From IMG/VR virus record IMGVR_UViG_2737471818_000001: 32,870 nt of DNA. One strand, given 5' to 3'. A program made the translations under genes and the position numbers. The notes beneath the pieces are model-generated. The model was not told the DNA's origin. It ran no database searches and was given only the letters and a program-made list of their open reading frames with translations. Below, one piece after another: positions 7,245 to 24,823 of this stretch. How positions within the stretch are numbered: the stretch's first letter is position 1; every line of letters starts with the position of its first letter. The stretch comes from a virus. Taxonomy: Duplodnaviria > Heunggongvirae > Uroviricota > Caudoviricetes.

Positions 7245-7823
7245 TTATGCGGGCAGTTCCGGCCATGTGATATCGGGGGCATCTTCGGGTTTGACTCTGT
7301 TGAGCATGACCCGATATTTTTTCCATTCATTAAGCGCGGTCGCTTCGTCTTCCGTTGCCATATCCAGATCAACGGCATCCTGCAGGGGGGCAATAGCCGA
7401 TGTTGCAATCATCAGCAGGTTTGATTTTTCCTGCGCCGCCTGCCCCTGACGAAATGTTTTTTCCGCTTCGGCATCGTGGATCCACTTAGCGCCATCCCAT
7501 TTTACATACTCCCCGTCAGGAGCAACCGACACAACGTTATCAGGCAGAGCGCCAAGTTTTTCAATAACAGCGGGCTTACCGGTGCTGATGTCATAGACGG
7601 TTGTCCCGCGGTAGTCCTCCACCCGCGACCATTTATTAGCCTGAGCATCGAAAACAGCCACAAAACCTGCCGTCACTTTTGGGGGCGCGATATCGGTACT
7701 GTAAGCAGGCAAGCCCGTATTAGCAGGGATAAACCCATCAGATTTCCCAATAAATTCATTTGTATCTGAACGAAGGTTATAAAGAATAATTGTCCGGTTT
7801 TCTCCGGTCATTTCAAAAGCCAT
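7245..7823 (-). CDS. G: Tail fiber assembly protein (Tfa), 192 aa
   Basis: Immediately downstream of tail fiber H with a 1-nt start/stop overlap; size and position of P2 gpG. Confidence 0.8.
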   Translation of the reverse strand: MAFEMTGENRTIILYNLRSDTNEFIGKSDGFIPANTGLPAYSTDIAPPKVTAGFVAVFDAQANKWSRVEDYRGTTVYDISTGKPAVIEKLGALPDNVVSVAPDGEYVKWDGAKWIHDAEAEKTFRQGQAAQEKSNLLMIATSAIAPLQDAVDLDMATEDEATALNEWKKYRVMLNRVKPEDAPDITWPELPA

Positions 7824-9658
7824 TATGCAAGCCTCACAATGTAGTTAAACGCAATATTTTTAACGGTGTTTTCTGTATTCCCGGTTGCATGAACGGTCGC
7901 TGTATGTCCGTGATACCCCATAACCACATAATGGTTATGCTCACCGATACCAACCCAGTGATCATGGGGACCAATCCACGTAACATGTGCATGATTACCA
8001 CTCCCCTCAATGCGATCCCCGGCTGACCACGAAATATTCGACGAGTGCATCCCCAGCCCTGAGCCAGGAGTATCCCGGTATGCAGACGTAGCACAATAAC
8101 GAAAGTTATGTACGTGCCATCCCCCCTCAGTGGAGGACTTATTGCCGTAGTCAAAACTGGTTGTTGGTTTTGAACCATAATCAAAAGAGTTGGTATATTT
8201 CGTTCCCAAATCGGTATCGGAAATACTGGCTGTGTGAGCGTGCGATTTAATACCGTCCTGTTCATACGAGAGTACCGCTCGTCCGTCCGGCTTGCCCTTT
8301 ATCGTCTGACCACGCATATCCGGGATAACACCAGAGGGATACGCTACAGCAAGCAATGGATATGCAGATTTATCAAATGACTGCCCCTGCATTAAGGCGT
8401 GAGCGGGTGGAACGGTATCGGATGGCCACGGAATCGGCGCACCGACAGGAAAAGCATCATCGGGTGTCCACGTCGTCCACGGCTGCGTGGAATATTTGCT
8501 CCGCGAATAGCTTCGGGAACTGCTGTACACGCGATAAACCTGCGTTATCCCTGCGCCCTTTAACACCATCAGCGAACCGGCATTATTTTCCGGGTAATGC
8601 AGCGCAGCACTGGTATTGGCATTTGCAGGCTGAAAATACAGACCCGGCGTCTGGTAATTATCCAGATTCTGGTCAGCACCAAGCTCGATGCACTGACCGT
8701 CAAAAATATCCTGTGACGTGACGCTGATATCACCGGCCAGCGAATGTCCGTTAACTTTTCGCTCAGACGGGACGCGACCATTCGCATTATCATTCACCGC
8801 CTTAACCGCTTTCGGTGTCGCGGCGAGGGTCTCAGATGTGCTGTCGGTGGCGCTGCTCAGTTTCACCAGACCTTTCTGCGCCGTGCTCGCGTCCTGAGCC
8901 GTATATTTACCATTAGCAAGGTCATACGCCGTCTTAACCGCTTTCGGCGTCGCGGCGAGCGCCTCAGACGTGCTGTCGGTGGCGCTGCTGAGCTGCACCA
9001 GACCTTTCTGCGCCGTGCTCGCGTCCTGAGCCGTATATTTACCACTGGCAAGGTCATAGGCCGCCTTAACTGCCTTTGGCGTCGCTGCGAGGCTCTCAGA
9101 CGTGCTGTCGGTTGCGCTACTGAGTTGCACAAAGCCTTTTTCTTTCAGCGTGGCGTCAGGATGATTGCGGGACCGCTCATGCTCAGCCAGTTTATCGTCG
9201 ACATAATCCTGCGTGGCCATCACCGTTGTCGCATCAATGGACAGCTCCACCGAGGCGATACTGCTGACAATAATCACCATGCGACAGGTCTGCGCACGCC
9301 CCGAGCCCTCCGCCAGCTCCGGCTTGTAGCTCTCCGCCATATTGGCAACGGCAATCAGCGTGCCTGCGTCATCATACAGACCCAGCTCACGCATCCAGAA
9401 GCCGCCCACCTCAGGAGGAATGACCAGCTCTGCCACGATATAATTTTTATTTTTGTTATCCTGGCTGATTTTATTCAGCGCATGACGCCAGACTTCATTG
9501 ATGAGCTTTACCTGCCCGACGTTCGGCTCCGGCAGTGCGCCGCCGCCATCACCGACGGCCATCGCGGTAAGGTTCACTTTTTTACCACCCGGCACCGTCG
9601 CCGCCGCCAGTTTTGCAGCTCCGGCGGTGGTAATAATTGTTTTAAATTTCGTGCTCAT
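7823..9658 (-). CDS. H: Tail fiber protein H, 611 aa, with internal tandem repeats and a His-rich C-terminal tip
   Basis: N-terminus resembles the P2 gpH baseplate-attachment region; central [19 protein letters not shown] repeats; C-terminal HxH motifs. Confidence 0.85.
8795..9139. repeat. About 2.6 tandem copies of a 132-bp (44-aa) unit inside H
   Basis: Protein repeats [44 protein letters not shown] at residues 174-217, 218-261 and a partial third copy; the DNA repeat also generates the spurious plus-strand ORF 8744-9688. Confidence 0.8.
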
Positions 9659-11105: not shown

Positions 11106-11456
11106 TTAACTCAGTGGAATGGTGATAGAAAAGGGCTGGCCTGACGTCGACCGCGTGCCGGTGATATCGACATACATCGCGCCGTCATTCTCCCCGCGTT
11201 CAAAGGTGATGGTCGTCAGGCTGACGCGTGGCTCCCACTTCTGGATCGCGGAATAGCACGCGGCCATAATCTGCAGGCGTAGCGCCGGGGTCTGCGGCTG
11301 ATCAATAAGCGCCGACAGCAGCGAGCCGTATTCACGACGCATCACACGCGAGCCAACCGGCGTGACCAGAATGTCGCGCACGCTCTGCCTGATATGCTCA
11401 ACCTCAGAAATACTGAGCCCGGTATGACTGTTCATGCCCAGATAGCTCGTTGTCAT
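11106..11456 (-). CDS. W: Baseplate wedge protein W, 116 aa
   Basis: gpW/gp25-like small baseplate protein; synteny V-W-J. Confidence 0.85.
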   Translation of the reverse strand: MTTSYLGMNSHTGLSISEVEHIRQSVRDILVTPVGSRVMRREYGSLLSALIDQPQTPALRLQIMAACYSAIQKWEPRVSLTTITFERGENDGAMYVDITGTRSTSGQPFSITIPLS

Positions 11457-12094
11457 TTTGTCCCCTGCGTCCAGCTATCCCCGCCTTTAACACCGCCGTG
11501 GCCGTGGTCATCCACCTGCACACCGTTTGATTTAAACGTGCCGCCGCCGTGCTCGATGTTGCCGCTCATCTTCCCGCCCTTTTGCACCTCAAGCGTGGCC
11601 GTGGTCAGTTTGTTGGTGCAGACCACCTCGGGGGTATCGAGTGTGATACGGGTGGACGCCTTGACCAGTACCAGCGGCACAGTTGCGGTAATGGCGTCTG
11701 ACGCGGTGACGTCAGCGGTTTTAATACCACTCACCGTGAGTGACCCGCTTTCAGGCTCATACTCGATAACCGCCCCGTCAGGAAAGGAAATGTGAAGGGC
11801 ATCAGGCGAGGCCGACGGCGCGGGATGGTCATCAGAGAAAATGCCGGGCAGCACAAAAGCGGTGTCGAGCTCGCCGCCAATGGCAAGAATCAGCACCTGC
11901 TCGCCAACCGAAGGAGCCCACCAGGCACGCGAGCGACCGGCGCGGCAGGTCAGCCAGTTTAGCCAGGTGGTTTGCATCCCGCCGGTCTGGACACGGCAGA
12001 GCCCCTCATCGGGATTGACTGCAGTCACAATGCCGGTGCGGATAAGATTACGGATAGCGCGGGCGATATCCTGAATGGAATTTAAAGTATTCAT
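11453..12094 (-). CDS. V: Baseplate spike protein V, about 213 aa from MNTLNSIQDIARAIRNLIR
   Basis: Similarity to P2 gpV as recalled; ATG at 12092-12094. The track ORF extends upstream only through a non-ATG start. Confidence 0.85.
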   Translation of the reverse strand: MNTLNSIQDIARAIRNLIRTGIVTAVNPDEGLCRVQTGGMQTTWLNWLTCRAGRSRAWWAPSVGEQVLILAIGGELDTAFVLPGIFSDDHPAPSASPDALHISFPDGAVIEYEPESGSLTVSGIKTADVTASDAITATVPLVLVKASTRITLDTPEVVCTNKLTTATLEVQKGGKMSGNIEHGGGTFKSNGVQVDDHGHGGVKGGDSWTQGTK

Positions 12095-12429
12095 GGGGAA
12101 AGGATGCCGCCGGGGAAGGCCAGCGGCAATCGGGCGGGGTTTTGTGGGGGTTGAAACAACAACCAACAACCCAGAAAAACTATTTCCTAATTGCTCAATG
12201 CTTATAAGTAATTATCCAAATCCTTCCATAAGCCCCACTTACAAGCCAACAATGAACATCGTTACCACAAGTAACTTTTTGTGACCCCCTATCCAGTTAA
12301 AATAGCGCAGAATAAAGCATAAAAATTGAAACTATGGATAACCACATTGGAAAGATTTATACTTGTTAATATGTTAACCATTTGAAACCACTGCAGTTCA
12401 AACTTCTGAAAAGGAGCAATTTTCAACCT

Positions 12430-13359
12430 ATGGAAGTAACATTAAGCTTGAAAGATATTACGTCAATTATTGCAATAATCATCTCTCTTATTGCATTATA
12501 TTTTGCCGTAAGTAATTATAGGCGAAAATCCGGCACTCATATAAGAGGTCAATTTTGTATAAGTGAAAGTATAAACGCTGAAGACAAATACATCAGCAGT
12601 ATTACTTTGGAAAATTTCAAAGACAAATCCGTTATAATTTTCAAGATCTTCCTAAGAGTTGGAAGTAACTATTACATAGAGATTGATGACTTCGAGCGAG
12701 CCCCAAAAATACTAAAACCGTATGAATCCTATACTAATAACTACGACCCCGTGGATTTTTACTGTTTAAACATGAATCGTATTAATCTTAACAAACTTTT
12801 GAATTCAAAAAAAACAAAGATTAATATTGTGCTATCCACCTCTCATGGTAAGTATGTGGTAAAAGAATGGATAAATCTGTGGGATCCCATATATGATTTT
12901 TTCAAAAACCATATGACAGCTTATATCATCCCAATGACACCCATTGAAAAGGTGGGGTATTTTGGCTATAATTTCAAATACTTAGTCAAATTAAAAACTG
13001 AGGATGGATATAAAGAAACCATTCCAATTTATTCTAGTGACATTAATTACCCCAGGTTTAATAAATTTAGACTAACAGTGGAGTCACTTTCATCACGTGA
13101 AAAACTTGAAGACTTCCTAATAAATCAGATGATAATCGGAAATCTTAAATGTACTGATATTGAAGTTATCGACGCTGAACAACTAAGAAAAAGAAGTTAT
13201 CACCACGAATTTAAAGAAGAATATGAAGCAAAGCACTATAGTCTATTTTTCTATTTAGTTATTGGGAGACTATTAACCGTCTTTAGCAACATCAGGCTTC
13301 ACTTCATCAACCTCAAAAACAAAAAAAAGAGAAAACAATCCAACAATACAGACAGATAA
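12430..13359 (+). CDS. Low-GC cargo protein, 309 aa, with an N-terminal transmembrane anchor; function unknown
   Basis: ATG at 12430 preceded by AAGGAG (12411-12416); hydrophobic helix ITSIIAIIISLIALYFAV; Lys/Asn-rich; strongly AT-rich relative to flanking V and S; opposite strand to the late operons. Confidence 0.7.
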   Translation: MEVTLSLKDITSIIAIIISLIALYFAVSNYRRKSGTHIRGQFCISESINAEDKYISSITLENFKDKSVIIFKIFLRVGSNYYIEIDDFERAPKILKPYESYTNNYDPVDFYCLNMNRINLNKLLNSKKTKINIVLSTSHGKYVVKEWINLWDPIYDFFKNHMTAYIIPMTPIEKVGYFGYNFKYLVKLKTEDGYKETIPIYSSDINYPRFNKFRLTVESLSSREKLEDFLINQMIIGNLKCTDIEVIDAEQLRKRSYHHEFKEEYEAKHYSLFFYLVIGRLLTVFSNIRLHFINLKNKKKRKQSNNTDR

Positions 13360-13378
13360 TTAATTTTTATAAATAGTA

Positions 13379-13425
13379 GTAAGATGTGAACAACCATTAA
13401 ATCGTATGAATTGCTCACATCTTAC
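13379..13425. terminator. Hairpin between the cargo gene and S, possible bidirectional terminator
   Basis: Inverted repeat GTAAGATGTGA(ACAA) ... (TTGC)TCACATCTTAC with a loop of about 17 nt, placed between two convergent genes. Confidence 0.4.
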
Positions 13426-13430
13426 CCTAA

Positions 13431-13877
13431 TCACCCCAAATGCTTTACAATCAACATATCTATGAGCTGTTTATCGTCTTGGTTAAATCCGAGTAACTGG
13501 CGTTCCGGGTATTGCACGTCCTGAGCGTGAGGGTTAGGCCTGTCTTTGAGTCCGAGCTGATGAATCTGTGCAATACGTTGCACTTTGCCGGTAAACTCCA
13601 CCACAGCAGCATCATTGCGGCCACTGGCTTTCATGTAGCGACTCGTTCGCAGCTTCTGAAACATCGCCCGTTTAATTCGCCCTTTTTTTGCCCTGAGCGG
13701 CTGACGCTTTCTCTCCTGATATGGTGTGCCGTCAGGCGCTTTTTGCTGTTTGATACGTTGCTGTTGCGATTTGCGCAGTTCCTTAGCTATTTCTGCAGCC
13801 AGCTTACGCCGCGACTCTGGTGACAATGCCCCGATAAGCCCCGCAAGTTTGTCGTCAAAAGGCTTTAATTCATTCAT
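13431..13877 (-). CDS. S: Tail completion protein S, 148 aa
   Basis: Similarity to P2 gpS as recalled; synteny R-S. Confidence 0.85.
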   Translation of the reverse strand: MNELKPFDDKLAGLIGALSPESRRKLAAEIAKELRKSQQQRIKQQKAPDGTPYQERKRQPLRAKKGRIKRAMFQKLRTSRYMKASGRNDAAVVEFTGKVQRIAQIHQLGLKDRPNPHAQDVQYPERQLLGFNQDDKQLIDMLIVKHLG

Positions 13878-22151: not shown

Positions 22152-23264
22152 TTAACCAACCCTTGCTTTTTTATATGGACCACAACTCCAACTAAAGAAA
22201 TTCTTACCTAACTTATACCATTTATCAGAAAGCACTGGTGTTAGGTGAGGATTATATTTTTTTAAACTTCCCTTTTGTATATATTTCAATGTATTACTGA
22301 GCAAATTCTCTCCAAAACCATCATAACTTACACAAGCAGTGTTGCAGCTACAGCGTTTTGATTCGATATACTCACAATCATATTTTATATCAAGCTTCTT
22401 TAATATCGGACGCCAATATGCACCATGTTTTCGATCGAGTTCAAGGGCTGTTTTAAAATCAAAACCTTTTTTATGGTCAATGTAAAATTTTACTGATTCA
22501 TCTACGGAGCAAAGATGCTTAAAGAAAATGAGAGATTTTTCTTTTTGTTGAAATTGACTTTGACTTCTTAATACATCTTCAATTGTCGATAAAGGAACTA
22601 GAGATTCTATTTCATGTACATCTAAAATCTCAACGAAACCTGAGCGAGTGATTTGTGAGCCCAAAAAATGTGAGCAAGTACCCCCGAATGGGGCTCTAGG
22701 ATGTTTTTTGTCATTATCCACAATACAAAAAACTATCTCATTATTTTGAATTGCACGCTCGAATACATCCTTAGTACTGCCCCCACCGCCATTTAGAGCG
22801 ATAAAACCCATTTCGCAGCGAGATAAGTTAATACCTTCGGCATAATGAGCCGCTATAACTCTAAAAAAATCAGAATCCAAAGGATTTTCACATACTATTT
22901 TCGTTTTTTGCAATTGTGCCGAGTCATTAAAATACAATGGACCACAAACAAATTTAAAAGATTCACCGTTCTGAACCCATCTAAATGATTTATCACTAAT
23001 ATTAAAGTCGACAGATACATAAAATGAGACCTGGTTCAAGATAGCATAGTACTCTGTTAGACCCGACAAAGCCTCTTGCGCGTAACTTTTTGATGAAAGG
23101 CTATAAAGCCCGCTTTGATCATTGATAATAGTTTTAAAAAAAACCCTTGCCCCTATAACCAAGTGTTTTTGTTCAGCAAATGCCCGAAGTATATTCTCAA
23201 CCGCTATGGCAAATGAATTATTTAGCACCTTCTCAGGTGTCGCATTTTCGATATGAATCAACAT
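22152..23264 (-). CDS. Cargo protein, 370 aa, uncharacterized partner of the upstream ATPase; possible nuclease-like effector
   Basis: ATG 2 nt after the ATPase stop; low GC; hydrophobic strand followed by acidic motif IVFCIVDNDKK; glycine-rich LNGGGGST; C-terminal Cys cluster CSCNTAC...WSCGP. Confidence 0.75.
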   Translation of the reverse strand: MLIHIENATPEKVLNNSFAIAVENILRAFAEQKHLVIGARVFFKTIINDQSGLYSLSSKSYAQEALSGLTEYYAILNQVSFYVSVDFNISDKSFRWVQNGESFKFVCGPLYFNDSAQLQKTKIVCENPLDSDFFRVIAAHYAEGINLSRCEMGFIALNGGGGSTKDVFERAIQNNEIVFCIVDNDKKHPRAPFGGTCSHFLGSQITRSGFVEILDVHEIESLVPLSTIEDVLRSQSQFQQKEKSLIFFKHLCSVDESVKFYIDHKKGFDFKTALELDRKHGAYWRPILKKLDIKYDCEYIESKRCSCNTACVSYDGFGENLLSNTLKYIQKGSLKKYNPHLTPVLSDKWYKLGKNFFSWSCGPYKKARVG

Positions 23265-23266
23265 AA

Positions 23267-24823
23267 CTACTTACCAGAGAAAAAGCCAACCGGCCAATTT
23301 TGTAGGAAACCATTCTCGTCAAAATAAGATTTCTTAACTATGGTCTGCTGCTTTTCATCTTTTTCAAATACCAGTATTGAAATATCATCCTGTGAAAGAT
23401 TTTCATTTTCCTCAATATATTCACCAAGTGCTTCAATCATGGTCTGGCTATGTGTCTCAAAAATTATCTTCAAATCCACATTGTTTTCTTTTGCTTTAGT
23501 TACTACTTTTGCAAAAATACTTGCTAAATTATGTTGATATGACGGATGTAAATGCAATTCTGGCTGCTCAATGATAAATGTTATAGGTTTTCTAACCGTG
23601 GTAGCACGACGTTCTGTCTCAAGCCAAATGGCTGTAACTATCGGCAAAACCTGAGAGTAACCAAACCCCATATCACTAACATTATAGTTCTCACTATTTT
23701 CACCGGTATTTATTAAAATTGCAAAGTGAGAGCCACTTTGTTCAACCTTAATAATGAAATCAAAATTTAACTTTGTCCAATCTTCAAATTTTGATTTATC
23801 AGCCGGCCTTAATGAATTCAAAAGCATTGCAAGATTGGAACCAGTATGATCTATCTCATTAACCTGTAAATCTTGAAAGCGATAAAATCTTTCTGATGTA
23901 GCACGCAGTGGAGCTATGTACTTTACATTTCTGAATGAATCTGACAAGGATGTATTTATTATATCTATAAGATTATTAATATTCCATCCAATTATAAATG
24001 GATATAACTCATTCATTATTTCATCATGTTGAAGTTCAAAGTTTCTACTAAAAACTTTTTGTTCCTTGAATAGAAAAGCAACTAATTTACTAGCGTACGC
24101 TTTGGGTATAAAGCCAATTCTTTTGAATGCCTCTGTCACTTGATTTATATCAGATTTAGTATGGAAATATTTCTTTATATATTTCGCTGCTGAATCAATA
24201 AATGACAATTCTAATGCCCTGTCATGCCTAGAATGTCTCAAATAGAATGATGTGCTTGGAGGAGGACTATCTTCCTTACCCTTCAAAATTAGATTGGGTA
24301 TGAACTGCCCAAGATTTTTAGCTATTATCCCATCACGCTCTATTGTTTTATCATCTGATTCAATGAGTAACTTAACATTACTGTTCTCATCCATTGAAAT
24401 AAATATTGTTAAATCAGCCAATATAAGCTTAATCGTTTTTGTTTTTGTTTTTTTATCTTTAGAGTAAACAGTCAACTCTGCTTCAACATCTGTTGGTTGC
24501 TTTGCTAAATCAGTAAAACGATAATATGTATATCTTTGTGAAACCTCTGGCGGAATTGAGAGTGAAAAACTGAACGTAATTTCTTTTTTTTCAGAGTTTC
24601 GGGAAAGTACATCTGTAAAATCGCCAAAATCCACATATCGCCCATACCATAGTATTGGACCAGTAGTATTTTCTTCTACAGATTGACGAAGTAAAGGAAA
24701 TGTACGCAATAGGGAACTTTTACCACTGCTGTTCTTACCAACAAATACTGTAATTGGTTTTAAATCAATAAAAGTTTTGTTGACAAAGCTCCTGAAGTTT
24801 TGAAGACCTATACCCTTAATCAT
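23267..24823 (-). CDS. Cargo OLD/ABC-type ATPase (AAA_15/AAA_21-like), about 518 aa from the ATG at 24823
   Basis: Walker A VFVGKNSSGKSSLL; Walker B/D-loop FIIEQPELHLHPSYQ; H-loop ETHSQ; long insert between them. The track ORF extends to a TTG at 24895 that overlaps the cos-like site; the GGAG-preceded ATG at 24821-24823 is the likelier start. Confidence 0.8.
   Translation of the reverse strand: MIKGIGLQNFRSFVNKTFIDLKPITVFVGKNSSGKSSLLRTFPLLRQSVEENTTGPILWYGRYVDFGDFTDVLSRNSEKKEITFSFSLSIPPEVSQRYTYYRFTDLAKQPTDVEAELTVYSKDKKTKTKTIKLILADLTIFISMDENSNVKLLIESDDKTIERDGIIAKNLGQFIPNLILKGKEDSPPPSTSFYLRHSRHDRALELSFIDSAAKYIKKYFHTKSDINQVTEAFKRIGFIPKAYASKLVAFLFKEQKVFSRNFELQHDEIMNELYPFIIGWNINNLIDIINTSLSDSFRNVKYIAPLRATSERFYRFQDLQVNEIDHTGSNLAMLLNSLRPADKSKFEDWTKLNFDFIIKVEQSGSHFAILINTGENSENYNVSDMGFGYSQVLPIVTAIWLETERRATTVRKPITFIIEQPELHLHPSYQHNLASIFAKVVTKAKENNVDLKIIFETHSQTMIEALGEYIEENENLSQDDISILVFEKDEKQQTIVKKSYFDENGFLQNWPVGFFSGK

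Follow-up and report, generated by a model that had tools for sequence, protein, structure and literature searches.

Why does a temperate phage carry, among its lysis and tail genes, a single AT-rich gene that reads against all of its neighbours? The question is raised by a virus sequence of 32,870 nucleotides, IMG/VR record IMGVR_UViG_2737471818_000001 (the whole stretch analysed, hereafter the window). The window is 100% identical to a segment of the Escherichia coli EC11 chromosome (NZ_CP027255.1) and covers a complete P2-like prophage integrated between yegR and yegQ. The gene in question, here called the cargo gene, lies in the junction between the late genes S and V.

11453 to 12094, minus strand: gene V for baseplate assembly, which borders the hotspot on the left (RefSeq annotation of the EC11 record)
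12430 to 13359, plus strand: the cargo gene, an open reading frame (ORF) with an ATG start, encoding a predicted membrane-tethered protein of 309 amino acids (aa) that belongs to an unclassified family
13431 to 13877, minus strand: tail completion/virion morphogenesis gene S, right border of the hotspot (annotation)

The S|V junction as a cargo slot

RefSeq annotates the cargo ORF identically, as a 'hypothetical protein' (WP_041327787.1). An in-frame TTG at 12382 would extend the protein by 16 residues; the N-termini of the homologs fit the ATG instead. The GC content of the gene is 31% against 58% for the backbone, and along the window it stays at 0.31–0.33 across ~12200–13400 and at 0.57–0.63 on both flanks. 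In the EC11 annotation of the late block from ogr/D to gpO (~18 kb), all annotated genes lie on the late-gene strand except the cargo gene. An original prediction, made from the letters of the window, had described a gene strongly AT-rich against a GC-rich backbone and the sole plus-strand gene within ~18 kb of minus-strand late genes, and both descriptions are confirmed. It had further proposed a horizontally acquired single-gene moron between V and S, at the junction where P2 has orf30. The literature bears out the position of orf30: P2-like phages have three classical variable regions, of which the one named after it lies between S and V (PMC3091744), and orf30 itself is only 261 bp in P2 (PMC6823313). 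The proposal of a moron is likewise supported, and the cargo locus is a horizontally acquired, autonomous one-gene unit in the orf30 (S|V) variable region.

The content of this slot varies widely. The cargo gene is carried by 3 of 5426 complete E. coli genomes, and sister prophages with the same backbone hold at least six different cargos in the S|V slot, counting this gene. In E. coli GPT24-02 the slot is occupied by Tin (locus L004, 2552–3265; PADLOC E=2e-88) in the same orientation as the cargo gene. In E. coli 005008 (L052, 5193–6807) it holds a DUF262 protein, which matches NsnA (7e-80) and PD-T4-2_A (1e-42), together with a HEPN partner. The other sister cargos are hypothetical proteins of 398, 328 and 543 aa, for which hhalign gave no relation to the cargo family. 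With Tin and the DUF262–HEPN pair amongst its contents, the orf30 junction behaves like a hotspot for defence genes within this P2 lineage. Rousset et al., in screening P2 hotspots, turned to gpA-Q, a validated defence hotspot, and the S|V junction was outside their scope (PMC9122126). A later survey goes no further than to place some P2 defence systems among the tail genes (PMC13586616).

Comparison of the EC11 prophage with that of E. coli T-HYM1 (L060) shows how such a block may move. V is 6.4% divergent between the two, compared with 0.43% (4 nt) for the cargo ORF, whilst the leader upstream of the cargo gene, the hairpin downstream of it, S and R are identical. The contrast between V and the cargo ORF points to a recombination breakpoint near the 5′ end of V, and the mosaic pattern as a whole argues for a recent exchange of the cargo block via homologous recombination in the flanking genes. 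Against L060, the mosaic boundary in the window is sharp and falls within 11400–12094.

A membrane protein family without known domains

What kind of protein does the cargo gene encode? Searches of Pfam and NCBIfam gave no match to it, and none of the 38 family members that were aligned has a match in Pfam. The models of PADLOC-DB v2.0.0, amongst them those for Tin, Old, Cap15/2TM effectors and the PD-T4/T7/lambda systems, gave no hit to the protein at E<=1; they do pick out Tin and NsnA/PD-T4-2_A in the sister cargos. The only PHROGs match was weak and partial, to a family of unknown function. A profile search of the PDB sequences with the cargo protein yielded nothing, and structure comparisons yielded no enzyme fold and no match to a known fold, the best hit in the viral structure library BFVD being an uncharacterised protein (E=5.8e-4). 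No literature was found on the protein accessions. The absence of a recognisable catalytic motif in the original prediction therefore stands, as we found neither a catalytic motif nor a known domain, and the remote-homology and structure search that it had proposed, now run, matched no structural or characterized protein. The family itself is large: clustered at 90% identity the homologs form 95 groups, and at 50% there are 354, with nearly all members ~300 aa in length.

An AlphaFold model computed from the 38-sequence alignment (pLDDT 85.8, pTM 0.75), together with the hydropathy profile, divides the protein as follows.

12457 to 12519, plus strand: residues 10–30, transmembrane anchor, predicted N-out/C-in (hydropathy and flanking charges)
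12541 to 12864, plus strand: residues 38–145, beta-sandwich, the most conserved part (38–143 in the AlphaFold model)
12880 to 13239, plus strand: residues 151–270, small alpha/beta domain, less conserved (~151–266 in the AlphaFold model)
13243 to 13350, plus strand: residues 272–307, long C-terminal helix with a polybasic tail (AlphaFold model)

The N-terminal helix spans residues 7–33 in the model and reaches a Kyte-Doolittle value of 2.48 over a 19-residue window (family mean 2.3). Across the 38 members its flanks carry charges of +1.45/−0.8 on the N side and +4.1/−0.1 on the C side. Positive-inside analysis of these charges predicts an N-out/C-in topology in which ~9 residues lie outside and the globular part is cytoplasmic. 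Thus the N-terminal transmembrane helix of the original prediction is upheld, with the qualification that the soluble part is predicted to face the cytoplasm and not to be exposed outside. A cleavable signal peptide was considered and rejected on account of a neutral or acidic N-region, a hydrophobic core of ~19 residues and an RRK directly behind that core.

Conservation is at its peak (0.69–0.72) from the juxtamembrane segment through the sandwich to the WDP linker and is lower in the second domain and the C-terminal helix (0.54–0.57), with 38 alignment positions at least 90% conserved family-wide. The sandwich carries the motifs LENxKD[RK] and LSTSxGKY, after which comes WDP, and distant or truncated relatives match the N-terminal module only. 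At the other end of the protein, the C-terminal helix consists of a moderately hydrophobic stretch with a conserved G-[RK] in mid-helix, followed by ~5 Lys/Arg. Its Kyte-Doolittle value over the same window length is 1.53 in the cargo protein; with a family mean of 0.79 it falls under the transmembrane range in most members. We read it as a peripheral, amphipathic membrane-binding helix. In one relative (P0106, 534 aa) the C-terminus is extended by a multi-pass membrane domain, ~230 residues containing several hydrophobic helices, and this fusion hints that the function of the family takes place in the membrane.

Homologs in integrons and other mobile elements

Where else is the family found? 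We collected the neighbourhoods of homologs from 41 genome loci of many phyla; the scan for integron recombination sites (attC) described below covered 589 kb. In 44 of 45 loci the homolog is AT-richer than its flanks, by 14 GC points on average. All-against-all BLAST of the neighbours revealed no conserved neighbour, as no neighbour family was common to more than 3 of 42 loci. A two-gene system was rejected for want of a conserved partner; the downstream genes in Stutzerimonas and Undibacterium are unrelated.

At many loci the start codon of the homolog lies 5–30 nt past a GTTAGCC-type core, and the flanking genes are small, on the same strand and tightly packed. Seventeen textbook attC sites could be aligned (R'' TAACAA, L'' GCGCTxAAG, L' CTTAGC, R' GCGTTAGCC) and were used to build an attC model. 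As RNAalifold detected no consensus pairing in the MAFFT alignment, the covariance model draws on sequence only; two ad hoc detectors relying on pattern and folding were dropped, one being non-specific and the other too strict. The model produced 24 hits in the 589 kb, all 24 of which share the strand of the gene, and in at least 10 of 41 genomes the homolog is bordered directly by attC. Loci with cassette arrays are L022 (6083–8955; from Paraperlucidibaca, with the homolog at 7923–8955), L006 (6462–10543), L010, L016, L017, L021, L023, L033, L038 and L050. The array of L006, from Stutzerimonas, abuts a split integrase gene with the domains Phage_int_SAM_4 and Phage_integrase, which is consistent with an integron integrase (intI). 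Several homolog ORFs run into their own attC, such that C-terminal tails of the kind ANKALQRTSR are translated recombination sites.

Judged by these attC-bounded, same-strand arrays, members of the family elsewhere are integron cassettes. The copy in the window is not a cassette: the model had no hit at E<=1 to an attC or an attC remnant there, the leader is without a GTTAGCC core, and a 255-bp AT-rich leader stands in place of attC. The distribution of this large family across phyla, as a recurrent cassette and in both P2 hotspots, is the strongest context evidence that we have, and it lay outside the reach of a first reading of the window. At least one third of unknown cassettes from mobile integrons gave phage resistance, and about one third of those have transmembrane helices (bioRxiv 10.1101/2024.07.02.601719).

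The phage-borne homologs recur in a small number of positions. In the S|V slot they are found in Enterobacter hormaechei (24 contigs) and in two IMG/VR P2-like contigs, and tblastn places V and S on the flanks of the homologs in L061 and L062. The gpA-Q (tin/old) hotspot harbours them in P2-like prophages of Serratia and Pseudomonas (two in one genome) and in one IMG/VR contig. A homolog adjoins ogr/D in Providencia, another sits in a P2 remnant in Citrobacter, and in a 186-like Vibrio phage the homolog adjoins the integrase at the genome end. A filamentous prophage of Aeromonas veronii, recognisable by Rep_trans, RstB and Zot, carries one directly downstream of zot (L058, 6001–6921), the cargo position that is occupied by the toxin genes ctxAB in CTX phage. 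Lastly, a homolog on a Raoultella plasmid lies beside umuDC and hicAB, and islands rich in defence genes house homologs as well.

Other bacterial classes have copies that share 69–70% identity with the E. coli protein, and relatives are spread over many phyla, including Proteobacteria, Chloroflexi, Cyanobacteria and one Bacillota genome, with possible binning errors in the labels of metagenome-assembled genomes. The homologs of one such genome labelled Ca. Sericytochromatia (L014) and of Thalassolituus (L010) share 94% aa identity across different phyla, reflecting either a very recent transfer or a binning error. In a neighbour-joining tree, phage-borne and cassette-borne copies are interleaved, a sign that copies have passed repeatedly between integrons and the hotspots of phages. 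Nearest to the E. coli S|V copy are the gpA-Q copy of Serratia (71%) and copies in cassettes (69–70%), with the other S|V copies at 63–66%; the copy nearest to that of the inovirus in the set is an integron cassette (72%).

What the cargo protein may do

The reading that we favour, although we would place it slightly short of an even chance, is that the cargo gene is a single-gene defence against phages (or against mobile elements), expressed from the prophage and acting at the inner membrane. Some cue of infection would be sensed by the cytoplasmic domains, with the alpha/beta domain, the less conserved one, as candidate sensor. The conserved anchor and beta-sandwich, with the putative C-terminal amphipathic helix, would oligomerise at the inner membrane, and the oligomers would then compromise it, leading to abortive infection or growth arrest. 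Since the predicted topology leaves next to nothing of the protein outside the membrane, and since the hosts of the family differ greatly in their envelopes, cytoplasmic sensing with action on the membrane is the most likely arrangement. We infer a role in defence from the company that the gene keeps, its slots and vehicles having many anti-phage genes (PMC9122126; PMC13586616; bioRxiv 10.1101/2024.07.02.601719). Abortive infection or superinfection exclusion, the functions that the original prediction had in view for such cargo, are likewise suggested by context, no defence model or fold having matched. Action on the membrane is suggested by the confident model, the family-wide positive-inside topology, the lack of an enzyme fold and the multi-pass fusion in one relative. 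The membrane-inserting segment of an abortive-infection membrane effector has its counterpart here in one strong transmembrane helix and a C-terminal helix that appears amphipathic and polybasic. A bolder version, to which we give somewhat less credence, is that this is a new one-protein anti-phage system, in which the anchor and beta-sandwich form an undescribed effector and the variable alpha/beta domain is the sensor, and that it documents direct traffic of defence genes between integron cassette arrays and the hotspots of temperate phages, both P2-like myoviruses and filamentous phages.

A number of points weigh against a defensive role. No PADLOC-DB v2 model matched, and so membership of the known defence families fails. 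Guilt by association is imperfect, in that integron cassettes and phage hotspots also hold non-defence genes. The ~12 of 134 nearest-neighbour ORFs that match defence models at E<=1e-8, amongst them DRT reverse transcriptases, a CBASS E1-E2 with a 2TM effector, a type IIG restriction-modification enzyme and PDC candidates, speak for defence but were counted with a crude ORF caller and without a matched control. The attC model, built from 17 sites, sees letters and not structure, and was trained partly on the same loci. Oligomerisation and membrane damage are steps that we purely infer. Promoter-like signals upstream of the gene are not above chance, the AT-rich locus may be silenced by H-NS, and the gene is rare in E. 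coli, as the 3 of 5426 complete genomes show.

One alternative is superinfection exclusion. Here an inner-membrane protein would block genome entry, or an early membrane-associated step, of an incoming phage and the cell would survive, as with T4 Imm, HK97 gp15 and the integron cassette Deva. The predicted location fits, no enzymatic domain was found, the cargo gene lies opposite to the late genes and hence is probably expressed in the lysogen, and a transmembrane integron cassette has been reported to hinder genome injection by T7 (bioRxiv 10.1101/2024.07.02.601719). However, classical exclusion proteins have periplasmic domains or are multi-pass, whereas the topology predicted over the 38 members leaves ~9 residues outside and a cytoplasmic globular part, with neither an extracytoplasmic domain nor several passes. 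Moreover, the presence of the family in very different envelopes is hard to square with a block tied to the entry machinery of one phage, and we consider exclusion quite improbable. It is easier to imagine, if still on the unlikely side, that the gene is a hitch-hiking accessory of the membrane outside defence, with a role in lysogenic conversion, stress or the envelope, anti-defence or inter-element competition, or as an orphan toxin-like protein. Most integron cassettes and many hotspot genes are without a known role and many are not defence genes; no defence hidden Markov model or fold matched the protein; the neighbours in the cassette arrays are functionally miscellaneous; and the homolog downstream of zot sits where CTX phage has its toxin genes. 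What speaks for defence over such a role is that the gene recurs in two P2 hotspots holding validated defence genes (PMC9122126), that it has no signal peptide or exposed domain, as surface conversion would require, and that an autonomous one-gene unit is kept across phyla, suggesting an activity that is independent of the host.

A place in the life cycle of the P2 lineage itself, in the timing of lysis or as a helper of tail or baseplate assembly, would suit a gene located among lysis and tail genes, and phage lysis regulators do include single-pass membrane proteins. Yet the gene is missing from nearly all related P2-like prophages, which have unrelated genes in the slot, and its homologs reside in integrons, on plasmids and in an inovirus. 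A decaying or spurious ORF, which we group with this reading, is at variance with the strong conservation of the family (the 38 positions given above) and with the 4 nt that separate the two E. coli alleles. We regard either version as very remote.

Sequences flanking the cargo gene

The segments on either side of the cargo gene were delimited by alignment, motif scans and folding.

12095 to 12170, minus strand: conserved backbone segment 5′ of V, presumed late-promoter region; the cargo insertion starts right after it (alignment of five prophages)
12171 to 12429, plus strand: AT-rich cargo leader (composition, motif scan and alignment)
12335 to 12363, plus strand: promoter-like site TGGATA-17-TATACT in the leader (sigma-70-like pattern)
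12365 to 12378, plus strand: palindrome GTTAATATGTTAAC in the leader (5-bp arms, 4-bp spacer)
12411 to 12416, plus strand: AAGGAG in the leader
13379 to 13425, not assigned to a strand: cargo-specific hairpin lying between the stop codons of the cargo gene and S, which run convergently (folding against shuffles)

When five P2-like prophages with different cargos are aligned, the ~75 bp upstream of V are conserved whatever cargo follows, and conservation ends at ~12170. Going by the biology of P2, this segment presumably serves the V operon as late promoter. P2 late promoters follow a dyad rule of TGT-N12-ACA; a TGT...ACA dyad is present upstream of V, and its spacing, checked by eye, misfits that rule. 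Beyond the conserved segment, the leader differs from the sequence found by other S|V cargos and also from that of the cassette-borne homologs, whose ATG follows the attC core so closely. The near-palindrome that had been pointed out in the leader is confirmed, its pattern GTTAANNNNTTAAC being found once in the window where 0.03 occurrences are expected. A promoter or operator reading of the AT-rich upstream region is not borne out: there are 6 sigma-70-like sites upstream of the cargo gene, compared with 6.1 expected from shuffles.

The hairpin has arms of 15 nt each (13379–13393 and 13411–13425) that are 93% complementary. It folds far better than shuffles on both strands, at −17.4 kcal/mol (z −5.8) on the plus strand and −28.5 kcal/mol (z −7.3) on the minus strand, and in this respect the hairpin noted after the gene proved real. 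As the terminator of the cargo transcript it fared less well, there being no U-run after it on the plus strand; a U-rich tract, UAUUUAUAAAAAUU, follows it on the minus strand only. A terminator belonging to the backbone was rejected, since the hairpin is not kept in prophages with other cargo. Between the stop of the cargo gene and that of S there is no sequence common to those prophages, and this lack of conservation suggests that the hairpin arrived with the cargo gene. It resembles a convergent or antisense terminator more closely than one of the classical kind for the cargo gene, and probably separates two convergent transcription units.

Other features of the prophage

The same prophage has a second AT-rich island, in the gpA-Q (tin/old) hotspot (22152–24823, minus strand). 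One gene of the island encodes a 518-aa ABC-type ATPase with DUF3696, matched in PADLOC by NsnB (6e-55), PDC-M55A and AriA (3e-31); its 370-aa partner has no match. A pair of the same sizes (518 and 370 aa, with AAA_15/AAA_21/DUF3696) adjoins the Citrobacter homolog of the cargo gene (L053, L055). The tail-fibre gene, at the position of H in P2, is annotated in RefSeq as two incomplete pseudogene fragments (~8161–8455 and 8825–9658, minus strand), and GC content dips at 7800–8400. It may be that the prophage cannot form working tail fibres, or that this part of it was rearranged.

Significance and relation to known systems

Should the cargo gene protect against phages, it would be a compact single-gene system of 930 bp that adds a new combination of folds to the defence repertoire, and the S|V junction would be established as a defence hotspot. 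One gene would then be seen to shuttle across phyla by way of integrons, P2 hotspots, an inovirus and plasmids, an example of interest for the question of how defence genes arise as cassettes and are later redistributed. Should its role lie elsewhere, an abundant, conserved and unclassified membrane family of 354 clusters, with a strong mobile-element signature, would still deserve a family definition.

Amongst known systems, the morons of P2 (tin/old in the TO region, Z/fun and orf30) are close in context. The cargo gene lies in the same slot as orf30, and like these morons it is AT-rich, foreign, single and variable between syntenic P2-like phages; the TO slot of tin/old also houses members of the cargo family in other P2-like prophages. 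By position, variable content of the slot and base composition the gene belongs to the cargo of the P2 orf30 region; as a candidate for defence it is well supported and not a surprise. The likeness to orf30 itself (261 bp) is one of position, and PADLOC gives no sequence relation of the cargo protein to Tin or Old.

The integron side of the family resembles the phage-resistance cassettes of integrons (BRiCs) that have transmembrane helices, for instance Deva/brcWGS21; BRiCs are compact single ORFs, often with no known domain (Kieffer et al., bioRxiv 10.1101/2024.07.02.601719). In common with BRiCs, the cargo family occurs inside integrons and as close homologs outside them, a likeness by description and not by sequence; unlike BRiCs, the E. 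coli copy has no attC and is preceded by its 255-bp leader. A further proposed likeness is to T4 Imm, HK97 gp15 and P22 SieA, small inner-membrane proteins from phages or prophages that protect the lysogen. In contrast to these, the cargo protein is predicted to be nearly unexposed, shows no homology to them and belongs to a family with a very broad range of phyla.

In architecture there is a resemblance to the Cap15 and 2TM effectors of CBASS, which combine an N-terminal membrane anchor with a compact all-beta cytoplasmic domain, as the cargo protein appears to, and which work through the mode proposed here, oligomerisation and membrane damage. The differences are that the cargo protein has no HMM or fold match to them, has one helix instead of two, and in the model possesses an extra alpha/beta domain and a C-terminal amphipathic helix. 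Moreover, it has no partner cyclase and would therefore need to sense infection by itself, unlike Cap15 and the 2TM effectors. Although it fails every homology test for them, our best guess is that the cargo protein acts in the manner of the abortive-infection membrane effectors.

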